From contig OZ316896.1 in NCBI GenBank assembly GCA_973895155.1, forward strand, positions 22,525,722-22,589,721: 64,000 nucleotides of DNA, given 5' to 3'. This DNA is from Marsupella aquatica. Lineage: Eukaryota; Plantae; Marchantiophyta. Numbering within the stretch: the first letter of the stretch is position 1; each line of letters begins with the position of its first letter. The notes under the pieces were generated by a model. That model searched no databases. It was not told where the DNA came from and was given only the letters and a program-made list of their open reading frames with translations. Both the position numbers and the translations under genes were made by a program. This document shows positions 176-63,500 of the stretch, one piece after another.

Positions 176-338
176 ATGCAAATCAAATGGTAATCATGCA
201 AATCAAATGTTTTGATTACCATGCGCCGGCTTACAAAACTCAAGCTGATTTCAACAATTTGTATTATTGGTAACACTAATTTAATCACTATTAGTAAGAC
301 TACTTCAAGAGGGATTCAAATCTCTGTGACCTACACAA

Positions 339-29580: not shown

Positions 29581-29897
29581 AGTTACCCGTAGCCTCTTAT
29601 AGTGGCAGGTGTGGTTTAATGTGAATCTAATGGTTTAGTTAGGCAGTCGTGATTTCAGGTATTCTTCGTTTTTGCTAGTGTCCAAACCTTCCTGATTTCC
29701 GTGACATCTTTAATCATATTTTTCACACCTAAATACTGATTACACCTAAAGACAAGATTCATGGTTTCATGCAACATTTTTTGTATCAATAGTCACCACA
29801 AATAATGTGAGCTGATTTACACAATTTGTATTATTGGTAACAATAATTGAATCACTATTAGTAAGACTACTTCAAGATGGATTCAAATCTCTGTGAC

Positions 29898-32800
29898 CTA
29901 CACAATTAGTGTACTTCTGTGAGCTACGCAATTAGTGTTACTAACACTAACTCCAGTAAGCAGTTTGGTTCTAAATTCCAGAACACAATCAAAATCCACT
30001 GGCATGTCTACCCTGTGGGAGACCACAACCATATCATCAACTATTCGAGCGCAAGGTTTGTTGTAAGAAATTACAAGCTGATATCGAACGTTCAATTCTA
30101 AAAGCATATCGGGCTCAAGATCTTCATGTATATTTCCCTCAAAAACCACTGGATCATCAGTGTCTGCAAAGTGAAGACCAAGGGCATCACGACAACTCCT
30201 CTGTAAATCATAGAGAATACGATTTTGAACATGACACTGTAACTCTAAAGTTGTACTGAATCCCCGTTCAGTACCTTTGGGATAATTTGGCGAGACTTCC
30301 ATCCACACAAGGTCATCCCGCCTTCCTGGTTGACCATTTTCGGAAAGCAACTCACAAGTTTCAAGCACTCGAAGACATTCGCGCCAATTGTCTGACTTTC
30401 GAACGAACAGGTTTATTGGTTCGGCAGAATCCTCTGTGCCTTCGCTATGTTTGATACAGGCATCCACATTAACGCGCACACATCTCAAAACCGCTGTATT
30501 GGTTTGTGGATGCGCGTCTCCTCCCATGCTTACGGCTCCTTCGATCTTTGAAAACTTAATACATACTGTCTGGTGGCCATGATCACTTTTGTGGCAACAG
30601 CTGAAAGTGGTATTTACACTTACAGTTAGAGAGACCTTGCTCGATTCACTTGGGGAAGAAAACTGGTCAACTGTTGGCATTGATATTCTTTTGTCAGCTC
30701 CGGTTCGCATACATAGTCCTTCACGTTTCTTTGGCATGGTGATGTAGGAGTCCCCAACTGCTCGCCTTGTTGAAAACGAAGATGTAGATGGCTCGGGTGT
30801 CCCAGGGGGTGAACAAGAAACCGTTAAATGTTGCGGACGCCATGGACACTTCACATCTCGTTTCTGGCCTGCAACACCCGAATTCGCATCTTCACGTTAT
30901 TGCTACCAATTCTTACCTTCAAGTCTCTATAACCACTAACAGTCAATGGCCAAGTTCTCCGGTCCAAGTAACATGTCAATCTCTTGTTTATCCTCAGATG
31001 AGAACAGGGTTCGGAACTTCCCGATACTAAATGAGGTCTCCAAGCACACTGAACAGTTGTAACAATCCCAAGGTTGGTTGACTTTGGTGGAACTTACAAA
31101 CGATCATATCCACACGACCTTACAGCATAATAGTGACGTTCAACTTGAGAAATTCTGAGCAGTTGGAAGGTACGTATTGTACGTCTAATTTAGAGTACAT
31201 TGACATCTTATTCGCACGGGATTATTCTCAAACCGAACATAGATAGGCTCACTTACTTTCTTGAATCGTACTTATCACAGCAGAAGTTTCATTGTCATCC
31301 ATTTTGGAGCCATGCAGGTTATTTGCAGAGGAACTCCCGCTTCTTTGAAATGTCGTTGAGCTTTCCGCACCACCGACAATACCCTTCTTCTGAGATGAGC
31401 TCAAGCTTTCACTCCGATTGGTTGGATTGCTATGAACATGACCTCGTAGCCTCTCATAGTAAGTTTTTGTGCTTGTCTGGCGTATTTGTGAGTACCCAGC
31501 TTTTGAAAGGACAGACCGTAGATCCTCCATTTCGTCATCAGATAGAGTAGAAATCCACTGGTTGCTTACAGAATAGTTGCCCGTGCTAGTATGCTTCACT
31601 GCTGTCTTGACGGATTCTAACACATCATTAGAATCGGCATTGCGAGGCGCCTTTCTCTTGTAAGGGAGGCTCTTTGGGACATCCACGCAGGTAGGCTTCT
31701 CAGGTTGCTCCGGAGCTGACTGTATTTCATCTTCAAAAGAGAAAGTACCCAATTGAGGATCAACAAAATCACCTGGACAAGCATTCAAACTACGAAAGTC
31801 AGATACTATCAAAATAATCATTCAAAACAAAGTTGCTCAAGAAAGAGAGAAATACGCCGTTGAATTGAATGGTGGCATCCTCATGTCTCTATTCGATCCT
31901 GGAATAGAGGTTCTTCAAACTAGAGAGCTCCAATTCCTGGGTACAATAATTCTTGGATGGAACGAGGAAACCTTGAGCTCAATCCGACCAAAAAGTCTAA
32001 AACATAGGAATGAAATTCACTTCATTTTTTGCAGGATGTCTGTCTCATCGATTTCCTTTCAAAAATGTCATTATGATCGACGCATTCAACATCATCCAAC
32101 TGCGTGCTCGCCAAGATTGGAAGTAAAATAAGACTTACTTGTTCGGACCATTTGGCTTGCCAAGTGGAATTGTTTTTCAGCAGTATCTGCGTACTGTTCA
32201 ATCTTGCCCACGCAGCCACTGTCGTTAGATACTACCGCCTTATTCACATCTTCACGGCGAAAATCATTATTTTCAGTTGCGCATGATGGATCATTGCATA
32301 TAGTTAAAACATGCACGCCGTCATCGATTCTCTCGTAAACCATTGTGGTATCAGTGTGATAAATTTCTGTATACCCAGTTCTCCGAAGCACTGACATTAA
32401 TGCGGCCTTTTCATGCTTGTCAAGACCGAGCATCCATTCCTTGCTCACAAAGTAACCATCTCGACCGCCATTCTTGACTTCTGTTTGAAATTCTTCGAGC
32501 TCCGATCGCTCCTACAAAAGGAACGCAATATCGCCGTCAATCCAAATTCCTTACCACTAATAAGAGCAATCTACGCAACTAGTTTCCGATAATTTCACAA
32601 TGCTCAAACACAATTTGATGTCTACAACCAGAATCTGAAAGCGTGAGAACCAACTCCATAAACAGATAAAAACAAACTCCGACTGAATCCTTATTCTTTG
32701 TGATCACGTTTTTAGCGCATTCTTGTTGGCTTTTGCAGCGTCAAGAGTTATCAAAAAAGAGTATATGATAGCGTTTTCCATTTGCGAGCCCAATCTTTGC

Positions 32801-35800
32801 AGTACCGAGTCACACAGGAACGGACAGAAAGACACATGAAGCCCGAATCCCTCCGTCGATGGTACATGCCACGCTCCTGGTCTCCTCATCTCCGTGCTTC
32901 TGTCTCCACGAGAACAGAAGTTCTTTCCCAAACTATCGGGTACATTCTTCAATGCGCTGCAGTCCTCAAGTATCACTGTTCTCAGGGATGACATGCGCCC
33001 TAAACTGTCCGGAAGGGTCATTAAATTTCCACAATGTTCAATCCGAAGGACTTCGAGAGACCCAAGGTTACCAAGTTCTTCCGGAAAACTGCGCAGCATT
33101 TCCGCCCGAACAGTCAGCTTCTCCAGCGCCCGAAGCTGCCCTATGCTGACCGGGAACCGTTGCAACCTATCCGCCCATATATACAAATCTTCCAGTGAAC
33201 AGAGGTTCCCCAAACTGTCCGGTAGCTCCTGAAGGTGGTCGACATGTTTTATGATTAAGATCTTCAGAGACGAGAGCTGGCCAAAACTATCTGGCAATCG
33301 TTGTAATTGTACGCAGTCAACCAACTCCAGTTCTTGCAGGGCATGGAGAAGACCAAAACTGTCGGGCAGTCCTTTAAGGTTTGGACAGTGCTCCAGACTT
33401 AGCAGTGTGAGAGAAACTAAGTTCCCAAAGTCGTCGGGTAGCGCCTCTAGCTCGTTGATGTCTTCCATGGTAAATTCTTTCAGAGCCCTGAGTTGACCAA
33501 AATTGGCAGGAAATCCCTGTAATTTTCCACAGCTTTGTAACTTTAATTCTTGCAAGGCCGAGAGATTCCCGAAACTTGCCGGCAATCTTTCAAGCCTGTT
33601 ACAGTCGTGGAGATGCAAATGTGTAAGGGTACGCAAATTCCCAAAGCTTTCAGGTAGGACCACCAGGCGCTCAGCATGTTTTATGATCAGTCTCTCCAGA
33701 GACTTGAATTCGCCAATACTTTCCGGCAGCATCATTAGTCGCGTACACCCAATCAGCTCAAGCTCTTGCAAGGACGAAAGAAACTCAAAACTTGCAGGCA
33801 GCCTGTCTAGACTGTCACACGCTTCTAGAGATAGAGATCTAAGGGACGATAAGCTCTCATGCAAGTAGAATTGTCTCCTTTCCGTAGTCTGTTGACTGCT
33901 AAGGCTCCCGCAACCTATGATGCGCAGATCCGTCAGCGAAGAGAGGCTCCCAAACGATTCGGGCAGACTTGCAAGCATGGAACAATTGAGAATGACTAAT
34001 GTTGCCAGGGAAGAGAGACTCCCAAACGATTCGGGCAGACTTGCAAGCATGGAACAATTGAGAATGACTAATGTTGCCAGGGAAGAGAGACTCCCAAAAG
34101 ATTCGGGCAGCTCCACAAGTTCTGACATCCCGGATAAGAGCAAAACTTTGAGGGCCGAAAGGTTGCCGAATGAATGCGGCAGTGCAGTGAACCTGACCTC
34201 AGTCAACTCCAACCGTTTCAGTTGGTACAGATTACCAAAATTGTCAGGCAGACGGGAAGGCCCCCGTATATCATAGAGAGATAAAATGCGCAGGTTGCTG
34301 AGCTTCCCCAACGCTTCAAGACTTTCCTCCGGCATCTCCCAGCCTTCGAGCTGTAAGACAGCTAAGTTATTCATGTCCTCCAGACTGATAGGGAGGAGGG
34401 GCCACTGCTGGTAAATCGGAGGAGTGCATCTTAGTAAGCAAAGCTTCCTTGATAAGGTTTCGCTGGAGCCTTCGGGTAAAATATGAACCAGCTCCAAGTA
34501 CTTCAGTCGTTCCAACTTATCCAGCAGTCCTAACTGGAACCTTTGGATTGGACCGCGGAGTTGCAGAATACTTGTCTGCGACAAAGTACGTCTCAAATAA
34601 GACTTCTTTTACCGAAAAGGTTCAATACTTGAGCAGTGATTAAACTATTGGAGTCTTCATTGAAAACAGATATTCTGACCTGAAATTTAATCCCTTTGGA
34701 AAACATTATTTATTCATTTTTTACCGCTTCAAGAAAACTCTACAGACTCTTGGCAGTGCTATTCTTCAATTGCATACTGATTTTAAAGTTGCTTCAGAAA
34801 CTTACCGCATTTGCATTGAGAAGATCCACTGCTCTGTCCTCATGTCCAATACACATTGATATGATGGCCCCCTTGGAGATACGACGGCCCAAATCACGCA
34901 GCTGGTCGTGGACCCACACTTCCTTGTACTTGATGTCCTTCTGCCAGGTCTCATCCCATTCAGTTTTGTCGACTTCCTTCACCAAAAATGTCCTGAGCAA
35001 CTTGGCCCACCTCATTTGTGAATATCCATAAGAAGTGCTCCAAGCAGCAAGGGCTATCTCTACCGGCTGCCCAAAAAAATGAGTCCCTGCTTCGATGAAC
35101 ATTCCTTTCTCTTCCGGCGACAGAGCATCATAGCTCACCCTCAATGAACTCCACAGTCGGTCATTAGGATGTCCGTCAACAGATTGAGCTTTTCCGAGAT
35201 TCTCTAATGTCTCCTTCCAGAGCCTAGCATTAGTCTCGTGACCCCTAAGATAGCACCCCACTACTTCGAGCGTCAATGGTAAGCCGGCGCATTTGTCAAC
35301 CACTTTCTTGACGTCTTCTTCCAAATGACGATTCACCTCGATAAGTTCGGCCGGAATTCCTTCTTGCTGAAATGCGTGGTGGCAGAAGAGCTTCATCGCC
35401 TCTTCAGACTGGAGAAAATCAACTTCGTAGATGGCACAATTTGGAAACATATCCAGAACGCCTTCATCACGAGTGGTAAAGATCAGTTGACTGCCACTTC
35501 CAAACTCATCCAATCTAGGCAGAATTCTGACTTGAACTTCGGAGTCAACATCATCCATCGCGATCAGAGACTTCTTCATCTGAACATCGGACCATTGCAA
35601 GGCATTGTCGTCCACCCTACTTCCATTCCGACGAAAAAGGCCGAGTACCCGCTCACTTAATTTGTGCACTTCAATGCCTTTGACATTGTCCACAAAGCAT
35701 GTATACTCAAATTGTGGAGAGATATTATTAAAAATCTGCTTGGCAATCGTGGTTTTCCCGATGCCACCCATACCCACAATTCCTAGAACAGGAATATTTG

Positions 35801-37467
35801 CGAACTTCTGTTGAACCTCGAAAACACGCCTCTCCAAAGCCGTAGGATAATGTGGGAGCCCGTACACCATTGCCTGGAAAGATCGATACAATAAGTTAAG
35901 TCACATATGATTTTGTTAAGGTAGTTAAGAAAATTGTCTGGAGTGACAGAAAGTTGTCGGACACACTTTCTTCCTCTTCCTCGCTTGGTGGTGTTAGTAG
36001 TGACCTTCTTCTGCAGGTGTCGAAGCTACCTTATAATCAATACTCCGTAGCGGTTAGCCGAGAGACTCTGAAGTCGCATACAGTACTCCTTTCTAACCGT
36101 GGGACTCTGATGGTAGTGCCTGATTGCGATAAATTCAGATGGCACATGCAAGAACTCTATCAAATTTGTATCTTATCAAATGTCTTCTACTTCGGTACTA
36201 CCAGAAGATCTCTATAAAGCCTGGAAGAATTTCCAACAGGCTTTTGAAGTATAAAATGCTAGGATTACAATTGACGTCAACTTGACGCAAAGTACAACTT
36301 TGACATAGATTTGCCAAGCGGAACACACTTTCCAGTTTGCAATAATCTGTCCAGACTGGAACGAATGAGAGCTATGCCTACAGTAGTTTACTGCTTCAGA
36401 GAAAAAAACGGTAAAGAGCTCTAAACATGAAGGTTCACTTTTTAAAATAATGGTTACCCAGGTAGTCTTGAGAAGGAACAAATTTTCATCAGCCAATGGA
36501 CATCGTTGTTTTTTCTGATGGTGATGGTAGTCGATGCAGTCATCGAACACATCTGAACAGAACGGTAAGTTGCAGTAGAAAAACACCACTCCAACAATAC
36601 AATCTATTTCAGGGATCGAGGTACTGCACCTTTCAAGTCCGTGTTATTTCCAAACTGGATTTTTCTGAATAAATGCATATGTAAAGGATTCTTTACATTA
36701 TTACTAGATTTGGCAAATATATCAGTTTTTCATATCAATTCATTCCATCAAGTTAAAGTGGAACTACATCTTACCGATTTGGTTCGAGGATCTTCTCCGA
36801 GTCCTGCAATTTGCCACATCTTGTATTGTCCATGTTGTCCGCAAAGATTGTCGAAATCAAAATTGACTCTTGCTCTTTGTGTACTAAGAGTTTTCACATA
36901 TTCCAGTAAAGGACCTTCAGCAACAAAACGTTCAGCTAAGTGGTCAAAGACTCCTTGATGCGGTGTAGAATAGAAATATATCGCCTTCAAATTTTCCAGA
37001 AATGTAGTTAGTTGAATCTTTTTCTCAGAGTTTCTCTTCCAGCGGCCTGTCTTGCTTGATGCATACCCGCATATCTGCTTTATCACTAAGCCGCCAAAAT
37101 TGTGACCAACCAATACGACAGGGCGGCAGGGTTCTTGTCCTATGTTTGCGTTCAGCAAATCTGATGTCAAGTTCTGACTAATGAGATGCATGTCAATCGT
37201 TCCACCTTCACAACTCTTAAGGACACTAGCATCGTAAGAAACAGACAGAATGCGGGCATCAGGAAACTTCTGCACCAGCCAAGTTTGTGGCCAAATGGAC
37301 GATCCGTGTCCACATTTCCACGTAGACCAATGGTTATCTTCAAAATCCCCGCGTTCCAACCCATGGAAAAATACGACTTCCACGCTTGGTTCGCCGCGTG
37401 GTCTATATAATTCGTACACAGAGTCATTCAATTGAGACACCTGATAACGCAAACCCAAGTGGTCCAT
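29898..37467 (-). CDS. Alpha/beta-hydrolase-NB-ARC-LRR (HNL) immune receptor with C-terminal extension; exons 37467-36775, 35873-34806, 34575-32806, 32511-32139, 31772-31257, 30868-29898 (~1796 aa)
   Basis: VVFFHG/WPQTWL/ILSVSYD/GHNFGG/YSTPHQG hydrolase; GMGGIGKTT, MDDVD, TTRD, GLPL, VHD NB-ARC motifs; 24-aa LPxSFGxLxxL LRRs. All five introns are GT-AG with matching phases 0,0,0,1,1. Confidence 0.88.
33947..34090. repeat. Perfect 72-bp tandem duplication adding one LRR unit
   Basis: LPESFGSLSSLATLVILNCSMLAS is encoded twice in copy 2 and once in copy 1. Confidence 0.92.
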
Positions 37468-39399
37468 TTTACTAACCTGTGCACAATTTGGTACAGAATG
37501 CCAAATCAGTTGGGGTAAGATTGAATAATTTCCAAAGATGAGACACTGAGACGAGGCAGACTGTAAATCTTGCTACCCATGTGACAAAAGAAGCACGGTT
37601 TAGGTCCGAACGGCAATTGAGAAATTCAAAACATGGAACCATTCACAAGCTCGTAAAGAGAGATCACCACCAAGGACTGTGCATAATACAAGTATTACCA
37701 TGGGCCGGTTTACAAAAACTCATAGCGATAAGGCGCAAAAGTTGCAGAAAGCTCGACGTAAATCTTGCAGCAAGCTCCGCAAGTACTTCGCGGACGTATT
37801 GGTTCGGAATAACTGCAGACATTCAGGGCATGTAATCGTGGATCGCCGGCTATTGGATGAAAACAGAATGGTCCGGGGATGCAGCAGGGTCACTTTAACT
37901 CTTATTGATGCATCGACGTGTTGTCTTGTCCTGCTTAGAAGTCGTAGACTTGGCAGAAGCCCCGAAGTTGGCGTTGACGCACATCTTTCCCAGGAAGTAC
38001 AAAATGGATACGTTTTTACCGATCACACCTGCGGAAGTTTTTTGACTGTGCCAGTAATGGTCAGCAAACCCGCAGCAAGTAAGAAGTAACCACATTCTAC
38101 CAAAGAACGTTCTCGGGACACTATTCTTCGAAGCACCAAGGCTATGTTGTTGTCATAGATACATAGCACAGAAGTGGCCCCAACTGATCCAAGAAGTATT
38201 ATCTACGATTCCAAAGAAAGCTAGCCTATGTGTAGATTTCTTCAAACCAGCCCAGAATAAGCTGGCGGATGACCAGTTTTATAAAGTGAGTAAGTTTCCC
38301 CATGATACAAAAGTGACATACACCACAGAGAGCTAGAGGATGTAACTGGCGTCCGGAACTTAAAACGACATCCTTGTCCAATATCCAAATGGGAAGAGTA
38401 CAGACTGTACCTGCACCCACGAGAGGAGCTACCGCCAGTTAGATGAACAGGTTGGATCACCTGAAGAACCAGACCCACCGGAGGTTTCGAGTAGACAATT
38501 GAACACCCAGCTAAATCAAATCCGGGACCTCACAGTGAGCAGATTCACCTCCGCTGTCGGTTCTGGTATGGGACTGCCGAGAAGTCCAGCAGGATTGCAA
38601 TTACCTGCAGAGTTCGGATGCTGGTGACTAAACGAAACCTAATAAGCTTTTGGAACTTGCTGATTCACACACATCACGCAAACAACTACGGAGTAAAGCA
38701 TCAGCCAACAGATACCTTCTTCACTGGCAGCAAATCCGAACTGCAACATAAACCATTAAACGAGCATCTACTGCAGGCTTCCCCTCCCCTCCACGCTCAC
38801 CTTGCTCAGGCAAACTTGAACAGGGGTTCAACGCGGAGGGGGTACACCCTCACTGACTCGGAAGCCCGTTCATCTATTTGAACTTCTCCAGGCCATGGCA
38901 AATCCACCGAGATCGCGGGACTCACGAAATCTGCTCAGAAGCAGATGTAAAAGCAACAAGCAAAGAGCAGGTCTCACGCACTGGTCTCACTATGCAAGTA
39001 GATCTGTCCCATCAAGACAAGAAGAAGGCCATTACGGTGGGGTAGAAATAATTAATTAATCCATCACCTGACGCCATTCTTTGAAAACGGCAGTGCCTGT
39101 CCATCAATCTGACCGTCTCAAAAAGTATAGTGTAATCTTTGGTTTGTCCAGATTGTCTTCGCTTAGTTTAATATCTTCCCATACCGACAGTTTTCTAATC
39201 TCCAGAGCCCGTTTAATATGTGAACCAGTAGATAACGTTGCCAGAGTGCATTCAAGGAGTGTTCTATATTTATTGTTTTAAAATTATGTGCCCAAAGTAA
39301 TGTATAATCATCTATGGTAGTAAGATGATGTGACAAGCCAAAGAATGGCTTGTATCGAGCCAATTATAACTAATTAGCTCAATACTCGTGCATTGCACA

Positions 39400-46810: not shown

Positions 46811-48259
46811 ATGGATCTAAAAAAGGTAAGTGATCCTCTTTGGACACATGCTTCAGATCTTATCAGTACTCACGGATGGGTTTGTTCATCTTCTTTCACA
46901 TAGCGCATTTTTTTGCGTTCAACTTCTTTAAAATCCATTTTTGCATCGAACAGAAAAAAAATGGGAAATAGTTATTTTAGTATAGATGTTCTCTGGTTCC
47001 TATTCTGCTTCACACATGTGTTTTCCTTGGTGTGCAGCTCAATGATTCGCTCTACATTTTTCACGATCCAGCTGATCAGAACAAGGAAATAACAGCCATA
47101 TTTATTTTCTTTCATTGTGTCCAGTGGACAGGAGATGAAAAAGCATATGTGCAAACCTGGATGTCAAGAGGCAGCCCTAGTATCTGTTGGCCAAAAGTCT
47201 GGCTCTCTGCTAAATATCCAGAAGCCCTAATCTTGTCTGCTAGTTATGATGCTGGACGTTATAAAGAGAAAAATAGCGGTCTCTTTCGTATGGATTCACT
47301 TGCAGAGAATTTACGGCAGGACATTCTTGAGCTTAGTACTAAAAGTTGTCCAATTTTTTTGATTGGGCACGGCTTGGGAGGAATAGTTATTAAGGCAGTA
47401 ATTCAAAACATGCAACGCAAAAGAGACGCCTTGAATATTTGTGGGTCTACACGCAAGGAGTTGATACGATTAGATTGTTTCTTGGAGAATGTGAGGGGGA
47501 CTTGTTTTTATAATACTCCTTTTCAAGGCTCAAAGTTTGTAAATTCTATTCCTAACAAGGGTCCCCTGCTATCAACTCTGGAAGTGCTAAACAACGACAC
47601 CTGCGAGTTGAACAATTATTTTAGAGACTGGCGGATTAATAAACAGTGCACAACAGCAACAATTTTTGCACTTCTTCATACAGATGTGGTAAATACTATT
47701 TACCCTGCCCAAAACTTGAGATCTCATTTATAACCAATTTCTTTCTCTAGGATGTTATTGATTGCAAAGGCATTAACGACTCTGTTCTGTGCAGTCTTTC
47801 TGGTATGGTGGGTCACCCTTGTCGTGCACACTTCTGAACTGGCTTTGGACCAAAAAACAAATTCAATTGGTGGAGGAAGGAGCAGCCCGTCATGATGCTG
47901 ATGACTTCTATACAGTAGTTAAATGTGACCATTTCACTGTTTGCAAGCCTCAATCCGAGGTGGCCAGCAGCTACAAACGGCTCATTGGACTTATTGAACG
48001 TGGAATGCAACGAGCATCATGCGACCCTGACAGAAAGCAGTGGACTAAATACGTGGAGTCAACCTTGCGCGCACTTCCTAATCTTAGGGGAGATGCACTA
48101 GAATTGAGAATAGACCATCTAGAGCAGGTTGGGAGATTTCGTGACATTTTTTACAAGCTCATAAACGGTCTCAAAGGAGCCGGTTTTAAGAAGGTAGGTA
48201 CTGATGGCAAGGCTGAGCTGTGGGAGCGAGCTAGTAGAGCACATCGCCACTGTTCATGA
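46811..48259 (+). CDS. Stand-alone SERAC1/PGAP1-like alpha/beta-hydrolase-domain protein; exons 46811-46825, 47038-47688, 47795-48259 (~376 aa)
   Basis: IFFH, WPKVWL, ILSASYDA, GHGLGG, YNTPFQGS, DHFTVCKP motifs; two phase-0 GT-AG introns; homologous to the HNL N-terminal domain. Confidence 0.88.
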
Positions 48260-50012: not shown

Positions 50013-52259
50013 TGTTGGAACTTTGCAGAAAGTTCCTACCGTTACGAGGAAGATCGTTCTACCTGCGCCAATCTGATCTTGTCGTGTAGAGCGTATTTAC
50101 CGGGCTCTCTCTCTGCTGTCGGATTTAGGGTCTCTCTCCTGGACGTTGATTCCCTTCCTTCCCGGCTGCACCTGCCGCTACTTATTGGTTCATCGTCACA
50201 GCACCTTCAGTTCATATCATGGCATGTTCACGTTTTCAACATGGTATCAGAGTGCATCTCTGCTCACTCTCAATAGATTAGGTTAGTAGCGGCGTAGTAA
50301 TCCAGGTAGAAAAGTTCCCTGGCCTCTTACTCCTGCATCTGAAGTTGCGACAGTAGTCCTGAGTGAAAGTTCCTCATAAGCACAGACTGTAGCGACAAAT
50401 CATGTCATCTAGACATGGAATGTTAAAGTGTTTTTCTGAGAGTGACAAATTAGAAGGATCCAAATATCATTTAGCGTGGACCATCCTCGTCAAGAATATG
50501 CTGAAACGTGATGAACTCTTCACTAAGCTCAACTTTGGCATCAAGCCTGATGCCAATGGTCAAGTCCAAGATGGCAGAGCTCATCTCACTGCACGTGAGA
50601 TTGAAAAGAAGAAACTACGGGCCACTTCGATTCTTGCTGCTACAGTGAAAGCAAAGTACCTGCCGACTGTTGATAAGTACTCAGATGACCCAGCCAAGTG
50701 TTGAGACCACTTCCAACAATGATTTGGTGGCGCTTGTGCAGAGACGATTAATGCTGGAACAAAAGCTTGCACACATTCGCATGTCTGACGACACCTCTGT
50801 GGAAGACTTCATCAACAATGTTAACAATATTGTTGGCCAACTAAGCAGCATTGATGTTGAAGTTGCCGACGACAAACTGATTCACCTGGTCCTTCGTGGA
50901 CTCCCCCCTAGCTAGGGTTCTTTCGTGTCTGTTTTTTCTTCTGACCTCTCTCGCACCCCTCCTCCTCAGTTTTCCACTCTTGTTGAGCGTATGTAGGCTG
51001 AAGAACTTTGGAAGAAGAACTCTCAGCGTGAACCTGTTGAAGAGGCACTATCGGTCACTCGTTTTACCAGACCAAATGGCCGTGGTCATGGAAGGTTTCA
51101 GCCTCGGCCTTCCTTCTCTGACCCTCCTCGCTATCCCTCTTACTCTCGTGTTGCAGGAGGACGTGGGATCCGCCGCAACACCACCTGCAACTACTGCGGC
51201 AAATCTGGACATTGGGAGGATGACTACGATCTCAAGAAGGTGGATGAGCAGATTGCTCAGCTACAACTTAAAGTTGTTGGCTTACGACGCTTTTGTCCTC
51301 AAGCCAACGTTGCTGAGATCTCTCATGAAGACGAAGATTTCTACGAAGAGGAAGAAGAAGGCGAAGGCGAACCCAGTAACACTGCTCTTGAAGCCAACTT
51401 CACTGAGATTCTTCCTAGTCGCGAATCTAGTAATTGGATCTTAGACTTAGGAGCTAGTGTCCATGTCTCTGGTGACAAGTCTGTCTTCTCTGGACTAAAT
51501 CCGTCTACTAGATCAGGATCGGTCGCCACTGCAAGTGGTACCTAACTTCCTGTTGCTGGACACGGTACTGTCAACATTGATACAAATAAAACCGTCCACA
51601 ATGTTCTCTATGTGCCCGGTCTTTGTCGTAATCTTATGTCCGTAGGTCATCTCACTGATGCTGGTCATAATGTTATGTTTAATTCCAAGTCCTGCCTTGT
51701 ATTCGACAAAGACAACCCTCACAAAATCTTTCTCCGCGGCACTAGGGACCCCGCAAATCATCTATATCGGTTGACCCAGTCTCTCCCGTCTATTCCACCC
51801 TCATCAACCTCCTCCCGCCTACTACCTCGGGTTCTATCTCAATCTGCACCTGTACTTAGTGCTGAATCTTCTCCCTCAGACTGTCCTGTCGATCTATGGC
51901 ACCGACTTCTGTGTCACGTGAACTTTCAAATGGTCCACCATATGTCTCATCGCGGTCTTGCTCTCGGTCTTCCATCCTTACTGAGAGTCAAATGGTCTTG
52001 TGAGACCTGTACTGTTGCCAAACATCATCGCGACAAGACACCCAAGTCGTCGGCTACTCGTGCTTCTCGCCCTCTAGAGATTATTCACTCTGACCTTTGT
52101 GGCCCTTTTCTTGTCTCCACATCTCAAAAATACATACTCACGTTTATAGATGATTTCTCTCGATTTACCTGGGTTTATTTTCTTTCTAGTAAAGCCAAAA
52201 CTTTCCGACGATTCCAGGAATTCAAGCTTCTTGTCGAGAAGCAATTTGTCACACCATTC
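50013..52259 (+). mobile_element. Truncated Ty1/Copia retrotransposon (5' LTR, PBS, gag, protease, part of integrase)
   Basis: LTR ends CAACA at 50241; CNYCGKSGH knuckle; WILDLGAS protease; LWHRLLCH...CETC; IHSDLCGP...FIDDFSRFTWVYFL; stops and frameshifts; LTR start could instead be 49990. Confidence 0.92.
50242..50253 (+). promoter_or_regulatory. Primer-binding site, tRNA-iMet type
   Basis: TGGTATCAGAG directly after the LTR end. Confidence 0.9.
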
Positions 52260-52847
52260 TAGGTAGTGTTAGAGTGTATCGTACTATCTAGATCCGTATG
52301 TTTGGTATGTGTGCTATATGAGCCGATAAGGTTCCGTCAAGTTTGTGTGAGAGGGTACTTCTCACTTGTGAGGCATTGAAAGGTCATCTTTCAATGTTGA
52401 GCCTTGGAGAGAAAGGAGCTTGAGTGTGGCTATGGTGGTTGTGAGCTCAGCTTGTGTAACGTGGATTCCTTGAGTAGTGCAAGGTGCGTTGGTTTGACAT
52501 ACATGTGTGATCAGATCGGTGCGGGATCGATGGGGTATTGTGGACCGGGATCATTGTGCCGATTGTATTGAGATTACATTGAAAGATCACATTCAAAATC
52601 TGTTGTATGGACTGTGCGGACAGAAGTTTGATTGATTGAGTTGTCGACGGTTCGTGGTAGCTCGGATCGTGTGTTGTTATCAAACAGATCGTTGGTATCT
52701 CGACCTGTATCGTTGTTGTTCGATCGCCCTGCTTCGCGATCGATGTACAAATCTGTGATTGGTGACAGGTTTTGAGTTGGAGGTCGATTGATGATTCGTG
52801 GAGGAAAGCGAATGTTGAGTAGATGTTGGATAGTGGAAGTCAATCCG

Positions 52848-52938
52848 TGAGGCTTTAGATCCGATTGCCGGCTACTATGAGGCTTCAGATCTGATTGCTG
52901 ACTACTGTGGGGCTTCAGATCTGATTGTCGACTACTGT
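52848..52938. repeat. 30-bp tandem repeat x3
   Basis: gaggctt(t/c)agatc.gattg...actact repeated. Confidence 0.85.
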
Positions 52939-55900
52939 TGGACGATGCTGGCAAGGTGCAGGTGAAGCGATGGCTCTTTTCCTAAAGGAACGGAGCTGCC
53001 AATGCCCCGTGCAGCGGTATCATCATTTTTATGAAAGAAACAAGGGTCAAAGGTGTTGAATCAAGCTGCTGCCGATTCTATGGAAGGGCTGCGTTTTTCA
53101 TGAAGGAAATCGACAAATTTTGGGAGCTTTTCGTGAAGGAAGTAGTCATTTTTGGGGTCAGGTGTGAGGCGCACGAGGTCACCCATCCCGAAAGTGCTCC
53201 AATCGCGAGCATGAAGTCACCCATTGCAAGCGCAGGCAGGCGCAAGGTCAAGGTCACCCATCTCGGGGCTATTCCGGGCCGTGAGCGCGAGGGGAGGCAC
53301 GAGGTCGAGCGCGAGGAGGTCACCCATCCCGGGGCTATTCCTAGCCGCAAGCGCTTAACTGGCAAGTTCTCATCCCACCTTGTGTACACACAAGCATTCA
53401 CAACTTGTCGTTAAGATTCAAGCGCCAGGGGGCTTTATACACTTTGCGATTTGTTTAGAGGCTTATTCTAGGCCAAATCAGCGGTTCTTTTAAGGTTTTT
53501 GATAGTTCTGAGTTCATCTAAATACACAGATTGAACCAATTCTGCATGGTTTCTCATCTATAACATTGGAATATCATGAAGCCTATTATGAAGGCCTTTC
53601 ATTGAACATTATGAATATTTGTTTGATCAATGTGTGATCACTCTTGGTGTGGAGAGTTAGTGTTTGACTATTCTTGCTGATTGGATCCTCTCCACACTTG
53701 TTTCCTGTTTATGTGCCATGTTGGTTCGGTGTGGGCACTTGATTCCATAGGACTGATCCGGGTTTGCAACTGGACATTCTAGTGTGTTGTGTATTTCTTT
53801 CCTGATGATGTTGGAGTGATGCCCAACACACCATGGTGAGTGCTTGTGTTGCTGACAGGGACAAATTACCTTTAGGGTTAGTATATAGATTATGTTAGGT
53901 TGGTCACCACGGATTCTTCTGACGCTGCTGGGTTACCCGATGGACGACAGACCGGTTTCACTCGGAGTGGGGCGCAATTTTGGCCAACGATATTGGTAGC
54001 AGTTAGCAGTGCAGCTTCAGACATTCCGACGAGGACTCAGTAACCAGTTCTCCTCATCATCAGGTGGTTGCACCTTTGTTGTGGGATATGGACGGGATGT
54101 ACGAGGCTACTAAGGGCCCACGATGATACTCTGGTGTAGTTGGTACGATTGATCTGGATGACTTCATCGAGGAGTTTGATATGTGGTGCGATATGCAGAC
54201 ATTGCGTAACGCCACGTTGTTTATACCTTTCATGGCATGGAAGGGATTATTTCAGCATTTGGAGGGGCCACCCATGGATGACTACCATGAGTTTTGGAAG
54301 GCTCATTTGGTTGAGATTGAGGCATGGAGGCAGCATTGGTCGCCTAATTACGTGTCCATCACCTATGGCACTAGTGCGGCTGCCCAACCCATTGCCACAG
54401 CTGCTGCTTCTTCTAACAGCACTAGCCAGAGTGGCACACCATCCACCAGCAGCACTCCAGCAGCATCCACCGCTACTCCTGCCGGTGTGATTGTGACAGG
54501 GACTGAAGCTGCACCAGCATTTAACCCTGTGGTGGAATTCTTTGAGGTACTGAAGTAGAACTATTAGGGTGTGAGAACTAATAAGTTGAAGGGTCTCCAG
54601 GAGTTCCAGCGCAAGACTGGAGAGAGTCTACGTGAGGCATACACTCGTATGCACAGATTGATCACTATCACCAAGGGAGTGACAGAGGCTCAGGCAGTCC
54701 AATTCTGGAATGCAATTCTGGATAGAGAGTTGCAACGCAGAGTGAGAGATGTCACTCTGCTTAGGGATGCAGATCCCACATTAGCAGTTGTTTTTACACT
54801 TTCGAAGCGCATTGAGCTCAATATGGTGAATGAGAAGGTGGTGACTTCCGGATTTGCGAAGGAAGCACCAAAGGCTGCATCTACATCCACACCACAGCCT
54901 ACTATACGAAAGAGCCAGAGGGAGAAGCCTATTGCACAAGAGTCTACCAGCCAGAGACCTGTGCCCTCTTATGCTGGACAGCAGTCAGGATGTTGCACCT
55001 GTGGTGGGGATCATGCACAAAGATATTGCCCAAATCGCAGAGGATTAGGAGAAGCAGCAACACCTGATCAGTGACATTGTGATCACTATGGAGCTCCTAG
55101 ACACACCAAGGATAGGTGTTTCTCACTCCATCCTGAGTTACGGAGGGGAGGATCCCGTACACATGATCAGGGGAGAGGAGGAGGAGGTAGAGGTGGTGGA
55201 CGTGGTCATGGCATGCCACATGCAGGGAGACAGGGAGGTGACGCTGCCCCTGCTGTAACCATAGATCCAAAGTATGCTAAGATTGCTCAATTGGAGCAAC
55301 AACTAGCTACCATGGCTAGTTCCCAGGTGAGACCTACTTCTAGTGATGGGGCATCTACATCCTATGGACCTTCCATATCCCATGGTCCTTCCACATCTTA
55401 TGGAGCTGATGGAGACCTTGCCACCATGGGATTCATGTGTGGCACTGCACATATTGATGCATCAACAGCTTTGACACGTGGGGCAGCTAGCCAAAGCTCT
55501 TGAGCCCTGAGGAGCAGTAGTGGAGCTAGATCCACAGAGGGGGGATGCACGTTGGCAGACAAAGCTTCCTCAGTCTTTTACATTGTCAGAGACAGTTCAG
55601 ACTGCCTCTATGACCCGGTTCGGACAAACCCTGGCATGGGTAAGTTGGCAGAATCAGGTAGTGATGTAGTAGGGATGATAGGTACCCTGCTGGGGGCGGC
55701 TACTACCATAGTACGCACCCCATTATTTTCAGCGACAGACATGTTAAACTTGGGAGTTGGTCTTGCAGAAGTATTCAGATTGGCAGCTACACTCTGTGAG
55801 GACATTCCAATAGTTTCTTTGCATGCAGAAGAAACTTGCAGTGTTGAAGCAATGAAGACCATGCCACCTATTGCTACTAGTGAGACATGGCATGCAACAG

Positions 55901-56744
55901 CAACGAGGTTGGTGGATTTACCAGCACGCCCTGCATTTGAGAGGACTAGGTTTAAACCTAGTGTTGTGTCATTGGATAATCGGAGTGGTATGTTCCGATT
56001 AGTTGGGCCTTCTAGGGTAGTATACCAACCAGAGAGAGTGTTACTGGATACTGGTGCTCAGCCCTTGATGTTGGGTAAGTCTGCCATACGTGGATTGGGA
56101 TTGCATCCAGAGGATTTGGAGGATTGTCCCTTTTCCATTCAGACTTCATTGGGGGGATCTACACCTACACAGCACATTACCAGGAGACCTCTTGATTTGA
56201 GGATTCAGGAAGGTCATGCCACAGATAGCTCACAGATACAGGCGCAAGCTATTTTGACTAAAGCAGAGTCATATGATGTGTTGGTGGGATGTACAATGCT
56301 CTACCCCATGGGATTTATTCTTGATTTTTGGGAGGAATCAGTGTCATATAGACCTGATTGGTAGTCAGGAGATGCTCGATTGAGCAAATTTCCAATGAGA
56401 TTTAGTGGACCTGTGGGAGGCCCTAAATCCACACCATTGTCTTTGGCAGCATTCAGTGGTGTAATTGTTGGACCTGATGATTTGATTGAGGCCCGAATTG
56501 AGGGTAATGCGCATGCAGCAGATGTTCCACCATTGGAGGAGTCTCATGAGGAGCACATCATGCGAGGATTACCTGTTGGCAATGTTGTGCCACCAGTGTG
56601 GGGGCACTGCACAGGCCTTGCCACAGGCAACAGCACGATTGGTACATGATGCATGGCATCATGTTTTTACACCATAGTCAGGAGTAGAGCAGTCTCGTGC
56701 AGATGGACCTGTGACTCTTTCACCATTGGATACCACTCCTATTG

Positions 56745-57705
56745 CTTGGCAGTATCCACCGAAGGGTATTTGTTTGTTGGATCTTTTTGGTGGGATTAGC
56801 ACTGGATTGGCTGCTGTTCTTCAGGCAGGAATTCCTGTGCGTTGTTATTTGTATGTGGAGACAGATGAGACAGCACAGAGGGTCTCATTATGATATGTGG
56901 CTATGTTGGTGGATAGATATCCACAGTTGCTGCCAATGGATGCTATTCGTGGTTATCAACATGCACTACCTGCTGATATTTCATTGCTGGGGGCGGATCA
57001 TCTGCATTGTGTTGGCCCCATTGATTTGGTGATTGCTGGTTGGCCATGTCAGGCCAATCTAGAGCTGGCGTTGGGCATGGACTTCATGATCCACGCTTTG
57101 CACTGTTTTGGGAGATGTTACGGGTGCTGCGTCATCTCCAGCTACATCAGACACAGTCTCCAACATACATTTTGGAGAATGTGCCATTGTTAGGTGATGA
57201 TCGTAGTCGGATTGTTGCTAGGTTCACCAGGTGAGGTCTTGGATTGGACCTGTTGTGTTATTGGATGCTGCACGTGTAGGTTCTCGTGCACATCGTCCAC
57301 GCTTGTGGTGGACTAATTTGATCCCATGCGAGGTGTTGAAGCGCGTATTTGACAGCATTCCACGCTCACCAGCCTTAGTGGTGGATGATATTTTGGATCC
57401 AGGGCATCGTGCACAAGGTGTGACCCAACCTGATAGACCTCCATTGGCAGTGGTCAATGCAATTGGGCGCCCACGTTGTGCATTACCCACTCTTGTAAGC
57501 CACTCTGCTTCATATGCATTCAGAGTAGGTGGCCCTGGACTTGTGTGGGACACAGCTCTCCAGTAGCTAGTGGAGCCTACTGCTGATGAGAGAGAGCATC
57601 CTATGGGATTTTTGACTAGCACCACTATAGTTGCCTCTGTGTCAGAGGGTTTGCGGCGCCAGGTTCTTGGTCAAGCAATGGATTTGAATTGTTTGACTTG
57701 GATTA
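56745..57705 (+). pseudogene. C5 cytosine DNA methyltransferase domain within gypsy pol
   Basis: Motifs in canonical order: I LLDLFGGISTG, II YVETD, III ADI, IV AGWPCQ, VI ILENV, VIII SRAHRPRLWWTN, IX EPTADEREHPMGF, X LGQAMD; stops at 56891 and 57564, frameshifts near 57052 and 57231. Confidence 0.9.
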
Positions 57706-58633
57706 TTAGCTTGGGAGTAGCTGAACAGTTGCGGATGCGCTCTACGGGAATTACTGATTGTCCCTTGGTGAGCTTGCGATCCACTAAGACAGTACTGACC
57801 ACAACTGGGGGCGAGCAGACGGTCCATGGACCTATGGCAAGATTGGCCAAGGCTGGACAGATTGTTGAGCAGGAAGGGACTGCTCAATCTACTGCTAAAT
57901 AGGAATCATTGGCTATCTCTTCTACCCTACAAAGAGATATTAGGGATTTGGTGGAGAGTTGGAAACCACAGCTTGGCCTTAAGTTGACAGGGGAGGAGAG
58001 ACGTCGCATGCATCAATTCCTGAAGAGTTATTGGAATTGTTTTGCATTTAGCATGAAGGATTTGGGGACATTAAAGGGTCCTAGTATTCAGATTGAATTG
58101 GCTAGTGATGCGCCAATCTTTCGTAGACCATACCGTTACAGTGATATGGAGAGAGCTCTGATTCAAAGCAGAACTCAAGATTTGTTGGAGGCTGGATTGG
58201 TGGAGATTTCATATGGGGAGTATGCATCTGCCACAGTGATGCCAGCCAAGAAGGATGTGCATGGCAATTACACAGATAGGCGCATGTGTGGTGATTACAG
58301 ACCCATTAATCGCCAGACAAAATTTGATAGATATGCCATGCCCACACCTGAGGGGATCTTTGATGCTGTGGGGCATGCAAAGGTTTTCAGTTCATTGGAT
58401 CTGAGGGCAGGGTACCATCAGCTTCCAATTAGGCATGCTGATAGGTCCAAGACAACATTCTGGGGGATTGATTCTTATGGCAAAGATTGTTTGTATCAGT
58501 GGTTATTCTACCATTTGGGTTGAAGAATGCATCAGTTGAGTTCCAGAGAGTCATGGATCGAATCCTTGCAGGTTTGGATTTTGTCAGATGTTATATTGAT
58601 GATATTTTGGTCTATTCTTCTACTATGGAAGAA

Positions 58634-60121
58634 AGTGGTGGACCTAGCCACCCAGCGCCCTCACCAATCCTAGCACTCACGCCTAAGTGCCCCTGGTGCC
58701 TGAACGCCTCCACGGAATACCTTGAGCAAGCACCCTAGTGCCCCTTGCACCTCCAGCGGCCTCTCCCATACAAAGCCGCACTTGCTCTCCTACACGACCG
58801 TTACTCGACGGTCCTCACTGTCTACACAAGCCACCGCGTACCTCGGTAAGTAACCCTTCAGGATCTAGAACTCGCCAAGTCTAGCATCCTAACTCAAGCT
58901 CAACAGACGTTGGTAAATAGGTCAGTGATAGGTCCTCCCAACGCCATAAGCCGGAACCAGAACCCACGCCCACTGTCCATCCAGGACAGCTCCTCCCTTG
59001 GGCGTGGCCCGGGTTCCCCCTTGTACCTATCCATCACCAACTGACCGCCCTGACCTCAGGACATGCTCATGGCCCAATTAGCGTAGCTTGTCCTAAAGCT
59101 TGTCCCAAGCTTGTCTCAACACGCCGGGACCAGAACGGCCCCGACTCTGACACCGACTCCCGGTTTGCCCCCCTGATGGTCTAGGGACAGAGCGCCCTTG
59201 GGACTCAGCCTCCATACCTACTTGGCCTTGCCTCCCCAACGCAAGCTCCCATGGGAGGCTGAACGCGGCTTGGTTGCTGTTCGGCAAGATTTGGTAAATG
59301 GGCGAGCTAACACCCACAAATCACGAGAACCCATGGCACCCCAAGACTCAGCTGAGCTCAAGAGGGCGTAGCCCTCCTCAAGAGCTTTCCAACGCACCTA
59401 AGAAGTCCTCCAACGGACTTCCCGTTGGGAAGATATCGTCGTTTTCGTTTGGCAGTTTCCCTTAGTATTGCGACCGCCGCGACTCACGACTTCGGCTCGC
59501 CCTTAGCCCTCAGGGAGACACCACTCCCCTCATATATGCTTCTGGAGACCTGCCACCCCCGGACCAGCTTTGGTCCCTAAACATTTGGCCCCCAACCCGG
59601 ATCCCATCGCGCATAATGGGCGCGCCACCAACTGGCAATACCCATAACTTTCTTGATAGGCATCCACAAGCGGAGTGCCTTAGCCTGTTATGACCGGGCC
59701 GACCCAGTGCTCATGCCTAGGTCCTCAGGTCTGATAGCCGCTCGGGGCCTCCGACCGGCCCAACCCGGCTCGGGCCACAACTTGCACCCCGAGCATCCGT
59801 TGCCAACGGCGTCAACTCCATTGGCCTTGGGCCCGAGAGGAGCTCACTTCCAAGCCCTTAGAACTCAAAGCCCATCCAACGGTCCGGACGGCCATCCATG
59901 AGCCCGGCCCATCCCGACCAGCCATAGGCTAGTCCAAGTCCTTAGTTTGTGTCCCCAGCTTGGCCCCTTGCCTCGCCAGTGCCACGTCTCATTGCCCACA
60001 AGTCTCCCCATGCTAAGTCCTCCCCGGATGGCCTATCCGGGCCTGGACAATAAGGGAGCTCGGCGTCAGAGTTAGCGACGCCGGAGCTAAGTGTTAAGAT
60101 AGTCGAGTTCCGCGACTTGCA
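58634..60121 (-). mobile_element. 3' LTR (truncated) of chromovirus, preceded by polypurine tract
   Basis: Minus strand aaagggggg-t-TGCAAGTCGCGG at ~60131-60110; homologous to 26513-27961. Confidence 0.85.
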
Positions 60122-60555
60122 ACCCCCCTTTAAAATGGTCACGTCCGCGTGACCTAAGTAAACGTTCCAACAGGCCTAGACCACTTTGGGCCTTAACAAT
60201 TTTATGAGGTAACAAATGGTTTGCCCATAAGGCTGATGCAAACCAGGTTGGTATGTGCATTCCAAACTTAGGAAATTCCAACCTATCCCACTTATCCAAG
60301 TAGGATGCCAGTCCAAACGGGTAAGCTAACTCCAAACTCGTTGGACCCCTTGTCCTCCCCTTGGGGCGCTCCCCTTTGGTTTGAACTAGCCTACCCACAG
60401 ATGTAGGGCGGGCACCATCAACTTCCACTCGCAAAAAGCAAATCAGCCGCCCAACAACCTCTAGCCCCAACGCAATCCGACTTTATCCTTAAGAGGCCGA
60501 GAGGAGTGAAACTAGGATACAACTCACAAAGGTAGCTACAGTTGTCTATACCAGT

Positions 60556-63500
60556 TCACAACGGCGGTAGGCCGCTTCGCTTACGATAGCTTCCAAGGAT
60601 CTCTGAGGCATTACCCAAATTTTCTTCCGGTTCCCAAGTACTCTCGGCCTGATCGTAGCCAGCCCACTTCACCAAATACTCTAAGATTTCCCTTCCCAAC
60701 TTGCGTTTGTAACGGTGGTCCAGAATTGCCTCCACCTCAAACTCCTCAGCGTCCTCCACCAGCATGGCGTCCGAACGCAAGACCTGATCCCGGTTGGGAT
60801 CATCGTCTTTGACAAATTTCTTGAGCCGGCTAACATGGTAGCTTTTGCCCACGCCCATTTCCTTAGGTGTCTCCAACACCACCGAAACCGAATTATCCTT
60901 GTGGGCCCATCGTATGATGCGATAGGGCCCCGCATATCTGGGAGCCAGCTTCCTACTTATGTTCCCATGGTATTGCTCAGGTCTCAACTGCAACCAGACG
61001 CTCTCCCCAATTTCAAAGCTTACCTGGCGTCGATGTTTATCCCCTTGCTCCTTGTACCGACTTTGGGCAAGGGTCATACCCTTGGTAGCCGCTTCCACAA
61101 CTAGGCGCCTCTCTCGAATAAAATCATCCGTAGAAGGAACCTTGCTTTCCGTCCGCCAAGCTTCCGGATTTATAAACCAGGAGGGCGCCCTTGGCGTCCT
61201 CCCTGTGGCCAACACAAACGGCGCAAACCCCGTCGCCGAATGCTTGGTCGAGTTATACCTGAACTCGGCCATTGTTAAATGGTTCGCCCAATCCTTCTGA
61301 TTGGCTATCACAAAGTGACGCAAGTAGTCCTCCACGATACCATTGACCCATTCTGTTTGGCCATCTGTCTCATGATGATATGCTGATCCCCTGGTCAAGT
61401 CCGTTCTGGATAACCGGAACAACGCCTTCCAAAAATGGCCAGTGAACTTGGTATCGCGATCGGACAGGATATGCAATGGCAATCCCCATTGTCGGAAGAC
61501 ATTGTCAAATACTAGACTGGCAACTTCTCGGGCTGAAACCATCTTCGTAGTAGGCAAGAAATACGTCATCTTGGAAAAACGATCCACGATTGTTAAGATG
61601 GAATTACTGTCGTGGGACTCAGGTAATCCAACAATGAAGTCCATGGAGATAGACTCCCATGGAGCTGTAGCTACTGGTAAGGGTTGTAGTACTCCTCCTT
61701 TTGCCCTATAGACCGTTCGGTTCTTTTGGCATGAGTAACAACTTTGCACATGTTGGAGGACCGATTGCTTCATGTCCGGCCAATACACATCTCGCGACAT
61801 GCTGTGATACGTAGCGGCTTGTCCTCCGTGCCCTCCCCAGGGTGAGTCATGGTACTTTTGCAGAACCTCTAACCTTAGAGACTCTGGTATGTACACACGC
61901 CTCTGCTTGTATTGCCATAAGTGGACATTATGCGTCGTATCCAACGATACGTGCCTTACCTTGCCCCGGCTACCCCCATTGCTTTGCCAATCCTTAGCTA
62001 ACCTGTCATCCCCATACGCCGCGGCCAGAACCTTTGGCCACTCGGATTCGAGCATCGTGATCCCATTGACACGATGTTGGTCCTTACGCGATAACGCGTC
62101 CGCTGCCGTATTCGTCTTCCTTGGAACGTGGCGGACTTTGAAATCAAAATCCGCCAAGGACATCTGCCAGCGCATTTCTTTGGGGTTCAATCGTGGCTTA
62201 GAACTGAAATACTCGGCCGGCAAGCTATCTGTGTGGATTACCACTTTGAGACCGTTCTTAAGGTAAATCTCCTACTTCTTTAACGCATAGATCACAACAT
62301 ACATTTCCCTTTCCGCGCGTGATCCAATGATTTTCCAACTTACATGACTTGAAGGCCACAGGACGCCCATCTTGGTGAAGACAGGCGCCAATGGCATAAT
62401 CACTTGCGTCTGTCCAAATCTCTAACGGCTTCCCCATCTCAGGTAATTTTAGAACCGGCGGCATTATCATTAACCGCTTAAGCTCTAGGAATGCTAACTC
62501 GCAATCCTGTGTCCACACAAACACTTTATTTTTCAATGTTAGTGCATTTAGGGGCCTCACGATCCTCGCATAGTCTTTCATGTATCTCCGATAGAACCCC
62601 GTAAACCCTAAGAAGGCTCTAACTTGCCTTACATTGGACGGTCGCTCCCATTCTTTGATCTCTTTAAGCTTGTCCTGACTAGGCGTAATCCCTTCTGGGG
62701 TAAAGGTATGGCCGAGGAACTAAATCTCGTTCATCGCAAACTCGCACTTGCTAGGTTTAGCAAAGAGACGAGCCTTACAAAGGCGAGAGAACACTTCTCT
62801 GAGCAACTGCTCATGTTCCTCCAACGTTTTCGAGTAGATTAGGATGTCGTCAATAAAGACGACCACTCCTTGGTCCGACAAGTCATGGAAGATGGTATTC
62901 ATCATCTTCATGAAGGTTGCAATTGCGTTACACAACCCGAACGGCATAACCAAAAACTCATAGGATCCGAATCTTGTGCACATTGCGGTCTTATACTCGT
63001 CTCCCTTAGCCATGCGGATCTGGTAATACCCGGACCGCAAGTCCACCTTTGAAAACTTCCTAGCCCCGGAGAGGCAATCGAAGAGGTCATCCATATGAGG
63101 CAACGGGTACTTGTTCTTTATTGTTTGCTTATTGAGCGCCCGGTAATCTGCGCACAATCTCAAAGTACCATCCTTTTTGGACACAAACAGTGCGGGCGCC
63201 CCGTAAGGACTCTTACTGGGGCGAATGAACCCTTGGTCAATCAACTACTCCAAGGCGTTCTTTAACATCATTCGCTCGTTCAGGTTCAGACGATAAGGAG
63301 CTTTATCAATCTATTCATTAAAAGTGAATTATTATTCAATTTATGAACATTTGGGCAATAGAAAATGTACATTTGGCCTTCAAAAAGTGTACAATTAGGC
63401 AAGAAATAAATATGATGGCCATCAGATGTACCACCATGTTCATCATTTGTAAATGAACTAGGATGAGACTCCTTCTAGTCAAGATCATTTTTGTCACCTC

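Follow-up and report, generated by a model that had tools for sequence, protein, structure and literature searches.

KnitGypsy-Dnmt3 of Klebsormidium nitens combines gypsy domains with DIRS-like A-coding-B-A-B repeats, the SymbioDIRS-Dnmt3 enzyme of Symbiodinium methylates CG sites de novo, and SymbioLINE-Dnmt elements are CpG-depleted (PMC5890265). De Mendoza et al. proposed for their elements that the methyltransferase acts in cis, on the cDNA (PMC5890265), and their question why a transposon carries the enzyme that hosts use for silencing transposons was raised in algae with few genetic tools. Here we describe a Ty3/gypsy remnant at 52247-58633 (+) of a 64,000-nucleotide stretch of the liverwort Marsupella aquatica (contig OZ316896.1; the whole stretch is called the window). 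Three-frame translation reads gag, protease, C5 methyltransferase (MTase) and reverse transcriptase (RT) in this order. We propose that it is a dead copy of a multi-copy family in which the MTase belongs to the first open reading frame (ORF1), in front of a probably leaky UAG, and would act as a particle enzyme that methylates the element's own cDNA; we put the probability of this proposal as a whole at about 0.6.

The methyltransferase and its gypsy family

In the window copy the MTase occupies 56759..57746 (+) and is unpermuted with motifs I-X, interrupted by two stops and two frameshifts. An earlier note on this DNA, made from the letters alone, had listed C5-MTase motifs in order on a single strand between protease and RT, and translation located every one it named on the plus strand: I as LDLFGG (~56777-56794), IV as GWPCQ (57038-57052), VI as ENV (57175-57183), VIII as HRPRLWW (57291-57311) and X as GQAM (57669-57680), with motif IX (57588-57611) reading EREHPMGF against the family form ERERAMGF. 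The RT follows at 57975..58633 (+), in frame with the end of ORF1. It matches Pfam RVT_1 with E 6.6e-8, its last block matches the Marchantia protein P0027 at 83%, and it carries YIDD at 58592-58603 before it is cut by a nested insertion. The PF00145 check suggested in the note gave a divided answer. In the broken window sequence only one of five MTase pieces matched, under the cut-off (E 0.0013), whereas the closest natural relative, protein P0003, which is 68-86% identical across the region in four frame blocks, scores E 5.8e-12.

Judged by profile and fold similarity, the enzyme of the window family is of DNMT3 type. P0003 alone finds DNMT3A with E 3.6e-11, before DRM and HaeIII, and a profile of 58 family sequences finds DNMT3A in PDB with 7.7e-28, DRM with 1e-14, M.HhaI with 2e-9 and DNMT2 with 1e-6. 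The AlphaFold model of P0003 has a mean pLDDT of 78.7, mostly above 90 across the MTase, and only DNMT3A/B/C were among the Foldseek matches listed for it (TM ~0.8 over the target); another model, made from a decayed relative (22 rows), came out poorly at pLDDT 47.7 and was set aside. Each of the 58 aligned proteins has the catalytic Cys, the ENV Glu and the second Arg of RxR. As a viral collection yielded one weak locus (32%), there is no support here for an origin from viruses or bacteria.

A search with one window piece returned 62 proteins, and those named by organism come from Sphagnum, Riccia, Marchantia and Calypogeia. In 80 metagenome loci a protease lies upstream of the MTase in 62, and the MTase end and RT start are close together in 55. 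These loci were found through the MTase. It counts against them that a single Sphagnum-like subfamily supplies the majority and that several represent one insertion which was assembled twice. Sibling contigs over 52000-59000 fill 30/30 bins in three of four runs and 28 bins in the fourth, and a single low-depth contig in run X2 skips 56542-57832. As far as these copies reach, the MTase domain is a family trait of gypsy elements in land plants. The note had inferred that such a family exists in what looked to be a land-plant genome, and this is borne out by dozens of loci, several genera and purifying selection.

Open Gag-protease-MTase frames range from 1,278 to 1,331 aa, and such proteins of 1,280-1,331 aa occur in four separate clusters. 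PCQ, ENV and HRxRxxW are retained in five Marchantia models of 1,278-1,281 aa that are 95-98% identical (Mp_4g09160, Mp_Vg00370, Mp_Vg00540, Mp_5g06330 and Mp_5g06860), and four of the five have the exact motif X. Such open frames in Marchantia polymorpha make the family testable in a tractable plant, and the gene sets of Marchantia and Sphagnum include element-derived DNMT3-like models. In the cluster of P0153, 4/15 Marchantia members listed are gene models of the V chromosome (male sex chromosome).

Purifying selection on the MTase is shown by codon comparison of family members. dN/dS is 0.09-0.16 in six of eight pairs, the other two being saturated; in the best-resolved pair (dS 0.26) it is 0.13 for the MTase, 0.10 for the protease and 0.07 for the RT. 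Against this it counts that most dS values exceed 1.4 and are near saturation. Shared versus private substitutions in dead copies gave MTase pN/pS of 0.54 vs 0.97, values confounded by recurrent deamination (14 shared stops); the RT reference in this test was out of frame, and RT values involving locus L005 were discarded.

A profile search extended the set to 517 clusters at 50% identity (E up to 1e-30). A common second arrangement has RT-RNaseH-MTase-integrase-PHD in one frame; its members include P0133-P0136, P0190 and P0217, the named ones come from the chlorophytes Tetradesmus and Hariotina, and no description of such elements was found in the literature searched. Mesostigma and Closterium, too, have named protease-MTase proteins. 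An RT tree was built from 44 rows, which comprise every one of the 12 proteins whose MTase precedes a near-complete RT, 24 of 78 of the second type, six loci, the window copy and an outgroup. Here a clade of nine (support 100/99) unites the window copy with the six stop-bearing loci and a pair of Marchantia models, and all but one of the 24 second-type rows group together (98/97). A quick-method MTase tree of 46 rows recovers the second type as a single clade (98) and joins P0003, at 99, to proteins of Marchantia, Calypogeia and Sphagnum; the deeper branches are weak. The two trees are broadly congruent; they hold neither host DNMT3 nor K. nitens sequences. Two further observations came from these searches: P0247 (1,417 aa), in which a weak RT match is accompanied by C5 and Dam adenine methyltransferases, resembles the dual-methyltransferase retroelements of bioRxiv 10.64898/2026.05.21.726589, and the P0137 cluster contains RVT_2 polyproteins of copia type that distantly match the family MTase profile (E 2e-9).

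The stop codon between methyltransferase and reverse transcriptase

The MTase had been placed within pol. It does sit between protease and RT, but it ends a Gag-protease-MTase ORF1, outside the RT frame, that is closed by a conserved, probably leaky stop. In the window this is the TAG which with its next hexamer spans 57900..57908 (+), a candidate readthrough signal whose hexamer is one base off CAATCA. In sibling contigs no variant is listed at 57893-57902 in any of four runs, and 57903 is C at full aligned depth in all four, which restores TAG-CAATCA. Compared with the siblings, this TAG (57900) proves to be conserved and no mark of decay.

The same position was compared in 56 linkers between MTase and RT (55 loci and the window). 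The frame is kept in 44/56, and a stop followed by CAR-YY is found in 51/56, after the hexamer criterion had been widened from strict CARYYA to CAR-YY. The 51 comprise 42 CAACCC, six strict CAR-YYA, two CAACTC and one CAGCTG that is possibly due to chance; three further linkers have a stop with TAR-YY, and two (L056 and the window copy) have neither. Among distinct 285-nt linkers the stop stands at the same codon in 27/27, versus five stops across the remaining 94 codons. Locus L068 shows the layout most clearly: open frames of 1,369 and 1,047 codons are split only by TAG-CAGTTA, and the second encodes RT-RNaseH-integrase-PHD. In proteins of at least 700 aa (n=123), 34 stop 48-166 aa past the MTase and 58 have the second arrangement with the MTase between RNase H and integrase.

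CAR-YYA is the readthrough consensus of plant viruses, and the soybean retroelement SIRE1 also has an in-frame stop between its frames (PMC2194720). Because a conserved stop followed by CAR-YY resembles this signal, we consider it likely that RT-RNaseH-integrase-PHD is made by readthrough. Downstream of the stop, a 3' RNA stem scores z ~-2.5 in L068 and L070 and -0.4 to -1.0 in the other three of five sequences, no consensus RNA structure emerged across eight sequences, and covariation in three sequences gave a two-sided change in one of 33 pairs. A 3' stem after the stop is suggested in some copies, yet unproven.

Several observations weigh against readthrough. The strict CAR-YYA is present in just 6/56 linkers, from divergent subfamilies. 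The CAACCC of the 42 is directly followed by ATG, which reinitiation would fit too. In addition, 13 of the 123 long proteins run from MTase into RT without a stop, five of them plant gene models whose joins differ from one another, and more distant relatives such as P0184, P0260 and P0395 lack a stop between both domains. The stop could be real and RT-integrase be made through splicing or through reinitiation at an AUG close by. Since in the largest subfamily an ATG stands two codons past the stop, reinitiation is the main rival to readthrough; five plant gene models join MTase to RT, and a yeast reporter showed no readthrough of the in-frame stop of Candida Tca2 (PMC2194720). However, the window siblings, L037/L075 and L067/L068/L070 have no ATG there and keep CAR-YYA, and 44/56 linkers keep the frame. 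The joins in the gene models P0013, P0023 and P0027 lie at different places, as expected of predictors stepping over a stop; gene predictors may bridge the conserved stop with false introns. We regard expression by reinitiation or splicing as quite unlikely.

Proposed mechanism and rival explanations

In the proposed mechanism ORF1 encodes Gag, protease and a DNMT3-type MTase and ends at the conserved UAG, and occasional readthrough of this UAG would supply RT, RNase H, integrase and a PHD finger. Because the MTase precedes a stop that would be read through only occasionally, it would be made at the level of the capsid protein. The protease would release it, it would likely be packaged into the particle, and there it would likely methylate CG sites in the new cDNA of the element. 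The stop is in this respect a clue to dosage: the element appears to want far more MTase than RT. The MTase of the family is likely to be enzymatically active, and we hold, with less assurance, that it acts on cDNA of the element itself and not on the chromatin of the host.

CpG content is consistent with methylation of the element. At synonymous C|G junctions of the window element 12 CpG were observed vs 65 expected, a ratio of 0.18, while nearby coding sets give 0.55 (the older host copia), 0.62 (a Harbinger transposase), 0.74 (the nested chromovirus) and 0.79 (NLR genes). The coding DNA of the element shows no depletion of CHG. Several points count against the CpG loss as a signature of the element's own enzyme. 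The ratio varies among relatives (0.10, 0.35, 0.50 and 0.60), and at window T/A positions sibling C/G exceeds the reverse in three of four runs and equals it in the fourth. By this comparison the depletion of the window copy is in part decay after insertion. As relatives range from 0.10 to 0.60 and part of the loss is decay, host methylation alone could be its cause. Against the proposal as a whole, the Klebsormidium domain gave no methylation in yeast, a result that its authors call inconclusive (PMC5890265).

The same anatomy could also serve an MTase that works mostly in trans. In the nucleus it would then act on the chromatin of the host, on the insertion site or on transposons of other kinds, and the PHD finger of the integrase would choose the site. 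The large excess of enzyme over RT that ORF1 placement would give, the PHD finger after the integrase in relatives and the open ORF1 copies in Marchantia would all suit such a role. However, Gag and protease are joined to the MTase in one polyprotein, and the DUF3444 of host plant DNMT3 is missing from it (PMC6453930). The chlorophyte relatives fuse it between RNase H and integrase, and therefore action on cDNA is favoured; the Klebsormidium methylome, in addition, looks ordinary (PMC5890265). A mainly trans-acting enzyme is in our view unlikely. The yeast result might also mean that the elements keep the domain for binding nucleic acid or modifying RNA and that it is no DNA methyltransferase. 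This we hold to be very unlikely, as the catalytic residues do not vary across 58 proteins, the closest match is DNMT3, far above DNMT2 (E 1e-6), and the related SymbioDIRS-Dnmt3 domains methylate CG (PMC5890265). That a single gypsy copy captured a host or bacterial methyltransferase gene, or that the assembly is at fault, might be thought of because the window is a nest of insertions. The earlier note had named a one-off insertion of a host gene as one outcome that would overturn its claim. Sibling copies and copies in other genera rule this out: the domain order recurs in dozens of loci from several genera, siblings fill all 30 bins in three of four runs, and broadly congruent trees and purifying selection point the same way. 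The chance of such an accident is negligible, and we rejected it. Methylation of its own cDNA by a packaged, ORF1-encoded MTase stays the reading that we prefer.

Element structure, neighbouring genes and known systems

The note had delimited the element as 53940..58633. The right end at 58633 stands, but the true start lies ~1.7 kb upstream, at the TGTCA of 52247, which is a break in the integrase frame of a host copia; a TGTCA start is also found in relatives. The 5' terminal repeat (52247..52650, +) begins with this TGTCA. Its right end is approximate, being deduced from the ~340-bp repeat A of relatives and the thinning of aligned contigs. The gag-like region (53954..55500, +), defined by translation and tblastn with Marchantia P0023, contains several stops. 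Its GxTRSG at 53954-53971 is the N-terminal Gag motif of the family, in a frame that differs from the ATG at 53940, and it is followed by a conserved capsid-like block (~54088-54864) and two zinc-knuckle-like motifs (~54991-55030 and ~55078-55120). Retrotrans_gag matches were weak and came from the open relatives P0070 and P0091. The aspartic protease (55936..56385, +), found by a probe match, has its catalytic DTG at 56047-56055; Pfam Asp_protease_2 matches it under the cut-off (E 0.0019).

The copy is dead, as the note had stated. Apart from the conserved TAG it has eight stops (54124, 54556, 54565, 55072, 55501, 56362, 56891 and 57564) and frameshifts near 56600, 57051, 57221 and 58508, and a younger gypsy is inserted at the 58633/58634 junction. 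The element itself lies in the integrase of the older copia (50393..52246, +; gag_pre-integrs, Pol_BBD and rve matches, frame broken at 52246), and its 3' end falls beyond the window. The younger insertion in the RT (58634..63300, -) is of chromovirus type with Pfam matches for RT, RNase H, integrase and chromodomain; its part 58634-60117 matches 26514-27961 at 83%, an LTR-like copy 32 kb away.

The domain order is that of gypsy elements, gag-protease-(MTase)-RT in the window and RT-RNaseH-integrase-PHD in L068 and L070. The two identical flanking long terminal repeats (LTRs) expected of gypsy were not found; relatives carry split repeats. In complete relatives the 5' end consists of a repeat A of ~340 bp, whereas B-A-B forms the 3' end, with B after a purine-rich tract. 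This A-internal-B-A-B order is present in L045, L062, L066 and L074 and not seen in the window copy, whose 3' end is missing from the window. TGTC...ACA termini and 4-bp target duplications occur in all three complete relatives examined (L062, L066 and L074), and L045 has a degenerate 5' junction. A 2-base spacer separates B and A in L062 (1676-2017 and 10238-10805), and also in L066 and L074. The relatives thus combine split repeats with a DDE integrase and 4-bp target duplications.

The window also contains two tandem copies of a hydrolase-NB-ARC-LRR (HNL type) gene on the minus strand (243-8955 and 29810-39039; 88-94% identical in blocks), with an unknown ORF downstream and a further hydrolase-domain piece at 46981-48259; this class was first described from the liverwort Marchantia (PMC3352924). 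Like the liverwort and Sphagnum proteins that are the nearest named relatives of the element, these genes suggest that the host is likely a liverwort-like bryophyte. A Harbinger-type transposase has an open frame at 13045-14382 (-), convergent with a Myb/SANT gene at 11683-12399 (+). No tRNA genes were found in the 64 kb.

In the literature searched, of which most subscription papers were outside coverage, we found no description of the bryophyte family, its conserved stop or six Marchantia gene ids. The accessible parts of PMC11244446, PMC11982613, 10.1101/363937, PMC6317226 and PMC6453930 report no land-plant element, and the main text of the REXdb paper does not contain 'methyltransferase', 'PHD' or 'Marchantia'. 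PMC12344493 and bioRxiv 10.64898/2026.05.21.726589, which cite or echo de Mendoza et al. 2018, treat the presence of such elements in 'streptophytes' as known, and their supplementary trees may hold land-plant sequences. No protein named from K. nitens or Klebsormidium appeared in the homologue searches or cluster look-ups. A more far-reaching view, which we offer as tentative, is that of an ancient, green-plant-wide Gypsy-DNMT3-PHD clade with split repeats, whose MTase moved between two slots. The bryophyte Gag-frame enzyme would then be active and present in many copies per particle, would methylate the cDNA in advance, and the open Marchantia copies, which carry ordinary gene annotations, would be an unrecognised source of DNA methylation in a model land plant.

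Retrotransposon-borne C5 methyltransferases are shared with SymbioDIRS-Dnmt3, SymbioLINE-Dnmt and the EpiLTRs of Cymbomonas and Euglena, but these belong to other element classes and hosts than the bryophyte gypsy family. EpiLTR DNMTs are described as sister to DNMT4 and come with Dam and a chromodomain (bioRxiv 10.64898/2026.05.21.726589), whereas elements of the present family carry a PHD finger and an integrase of DDE type. With the host plant enzymes PpDNMT3a/b (PMC6453930) it shares the unpermuted catalytic domain of DNMT3 type. The host proteins carry a C-terminal DUF3444 (PMC6453930), whereas the ORF1 proteins of the element are fusions with Gag and protease, and no DUF3444 was detected in those scanned. 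An in-frame stop followed by CAR-YY(A) with continuous frames recalls the readthrough of tobacco mosaic virus, and SIRE1, Tca2 and MuLV also have in-frame stops (PMC2194720). Here, however, the stop comes after protease and MTase, so that the abundant product would include these and not Gag alone, if the readthrough suggested by the sequences takes place.

The closest likeness is to KnitGypsy-Dnmt3. Both have gypsy domains, an intronless and unpermuted DNMT3-type domain with its catalytic residues kept and under purifying selection (Ka/Ks <0.2 in KnitGypsy-Dnmt3), and A-internal-B-A-B repeats, here seen in the four relatives named above. In KnitGypsy-Dnmt3 the DNMT is reported to lie in the ORF of RT and RNase H (PMC5890265), whereas in the bryophyte clade the conserved stop separates them. 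KnitGypsy-Dnmt3 was treated as an acquisition of the K. nitens lineage (PMC5890265), whereas the present family occurs in land plants. Among Gypsy-DNMT3 elements of the Klebsormidium type, the window family is probably the branch found in land plants, and its ORF layout is distinct.

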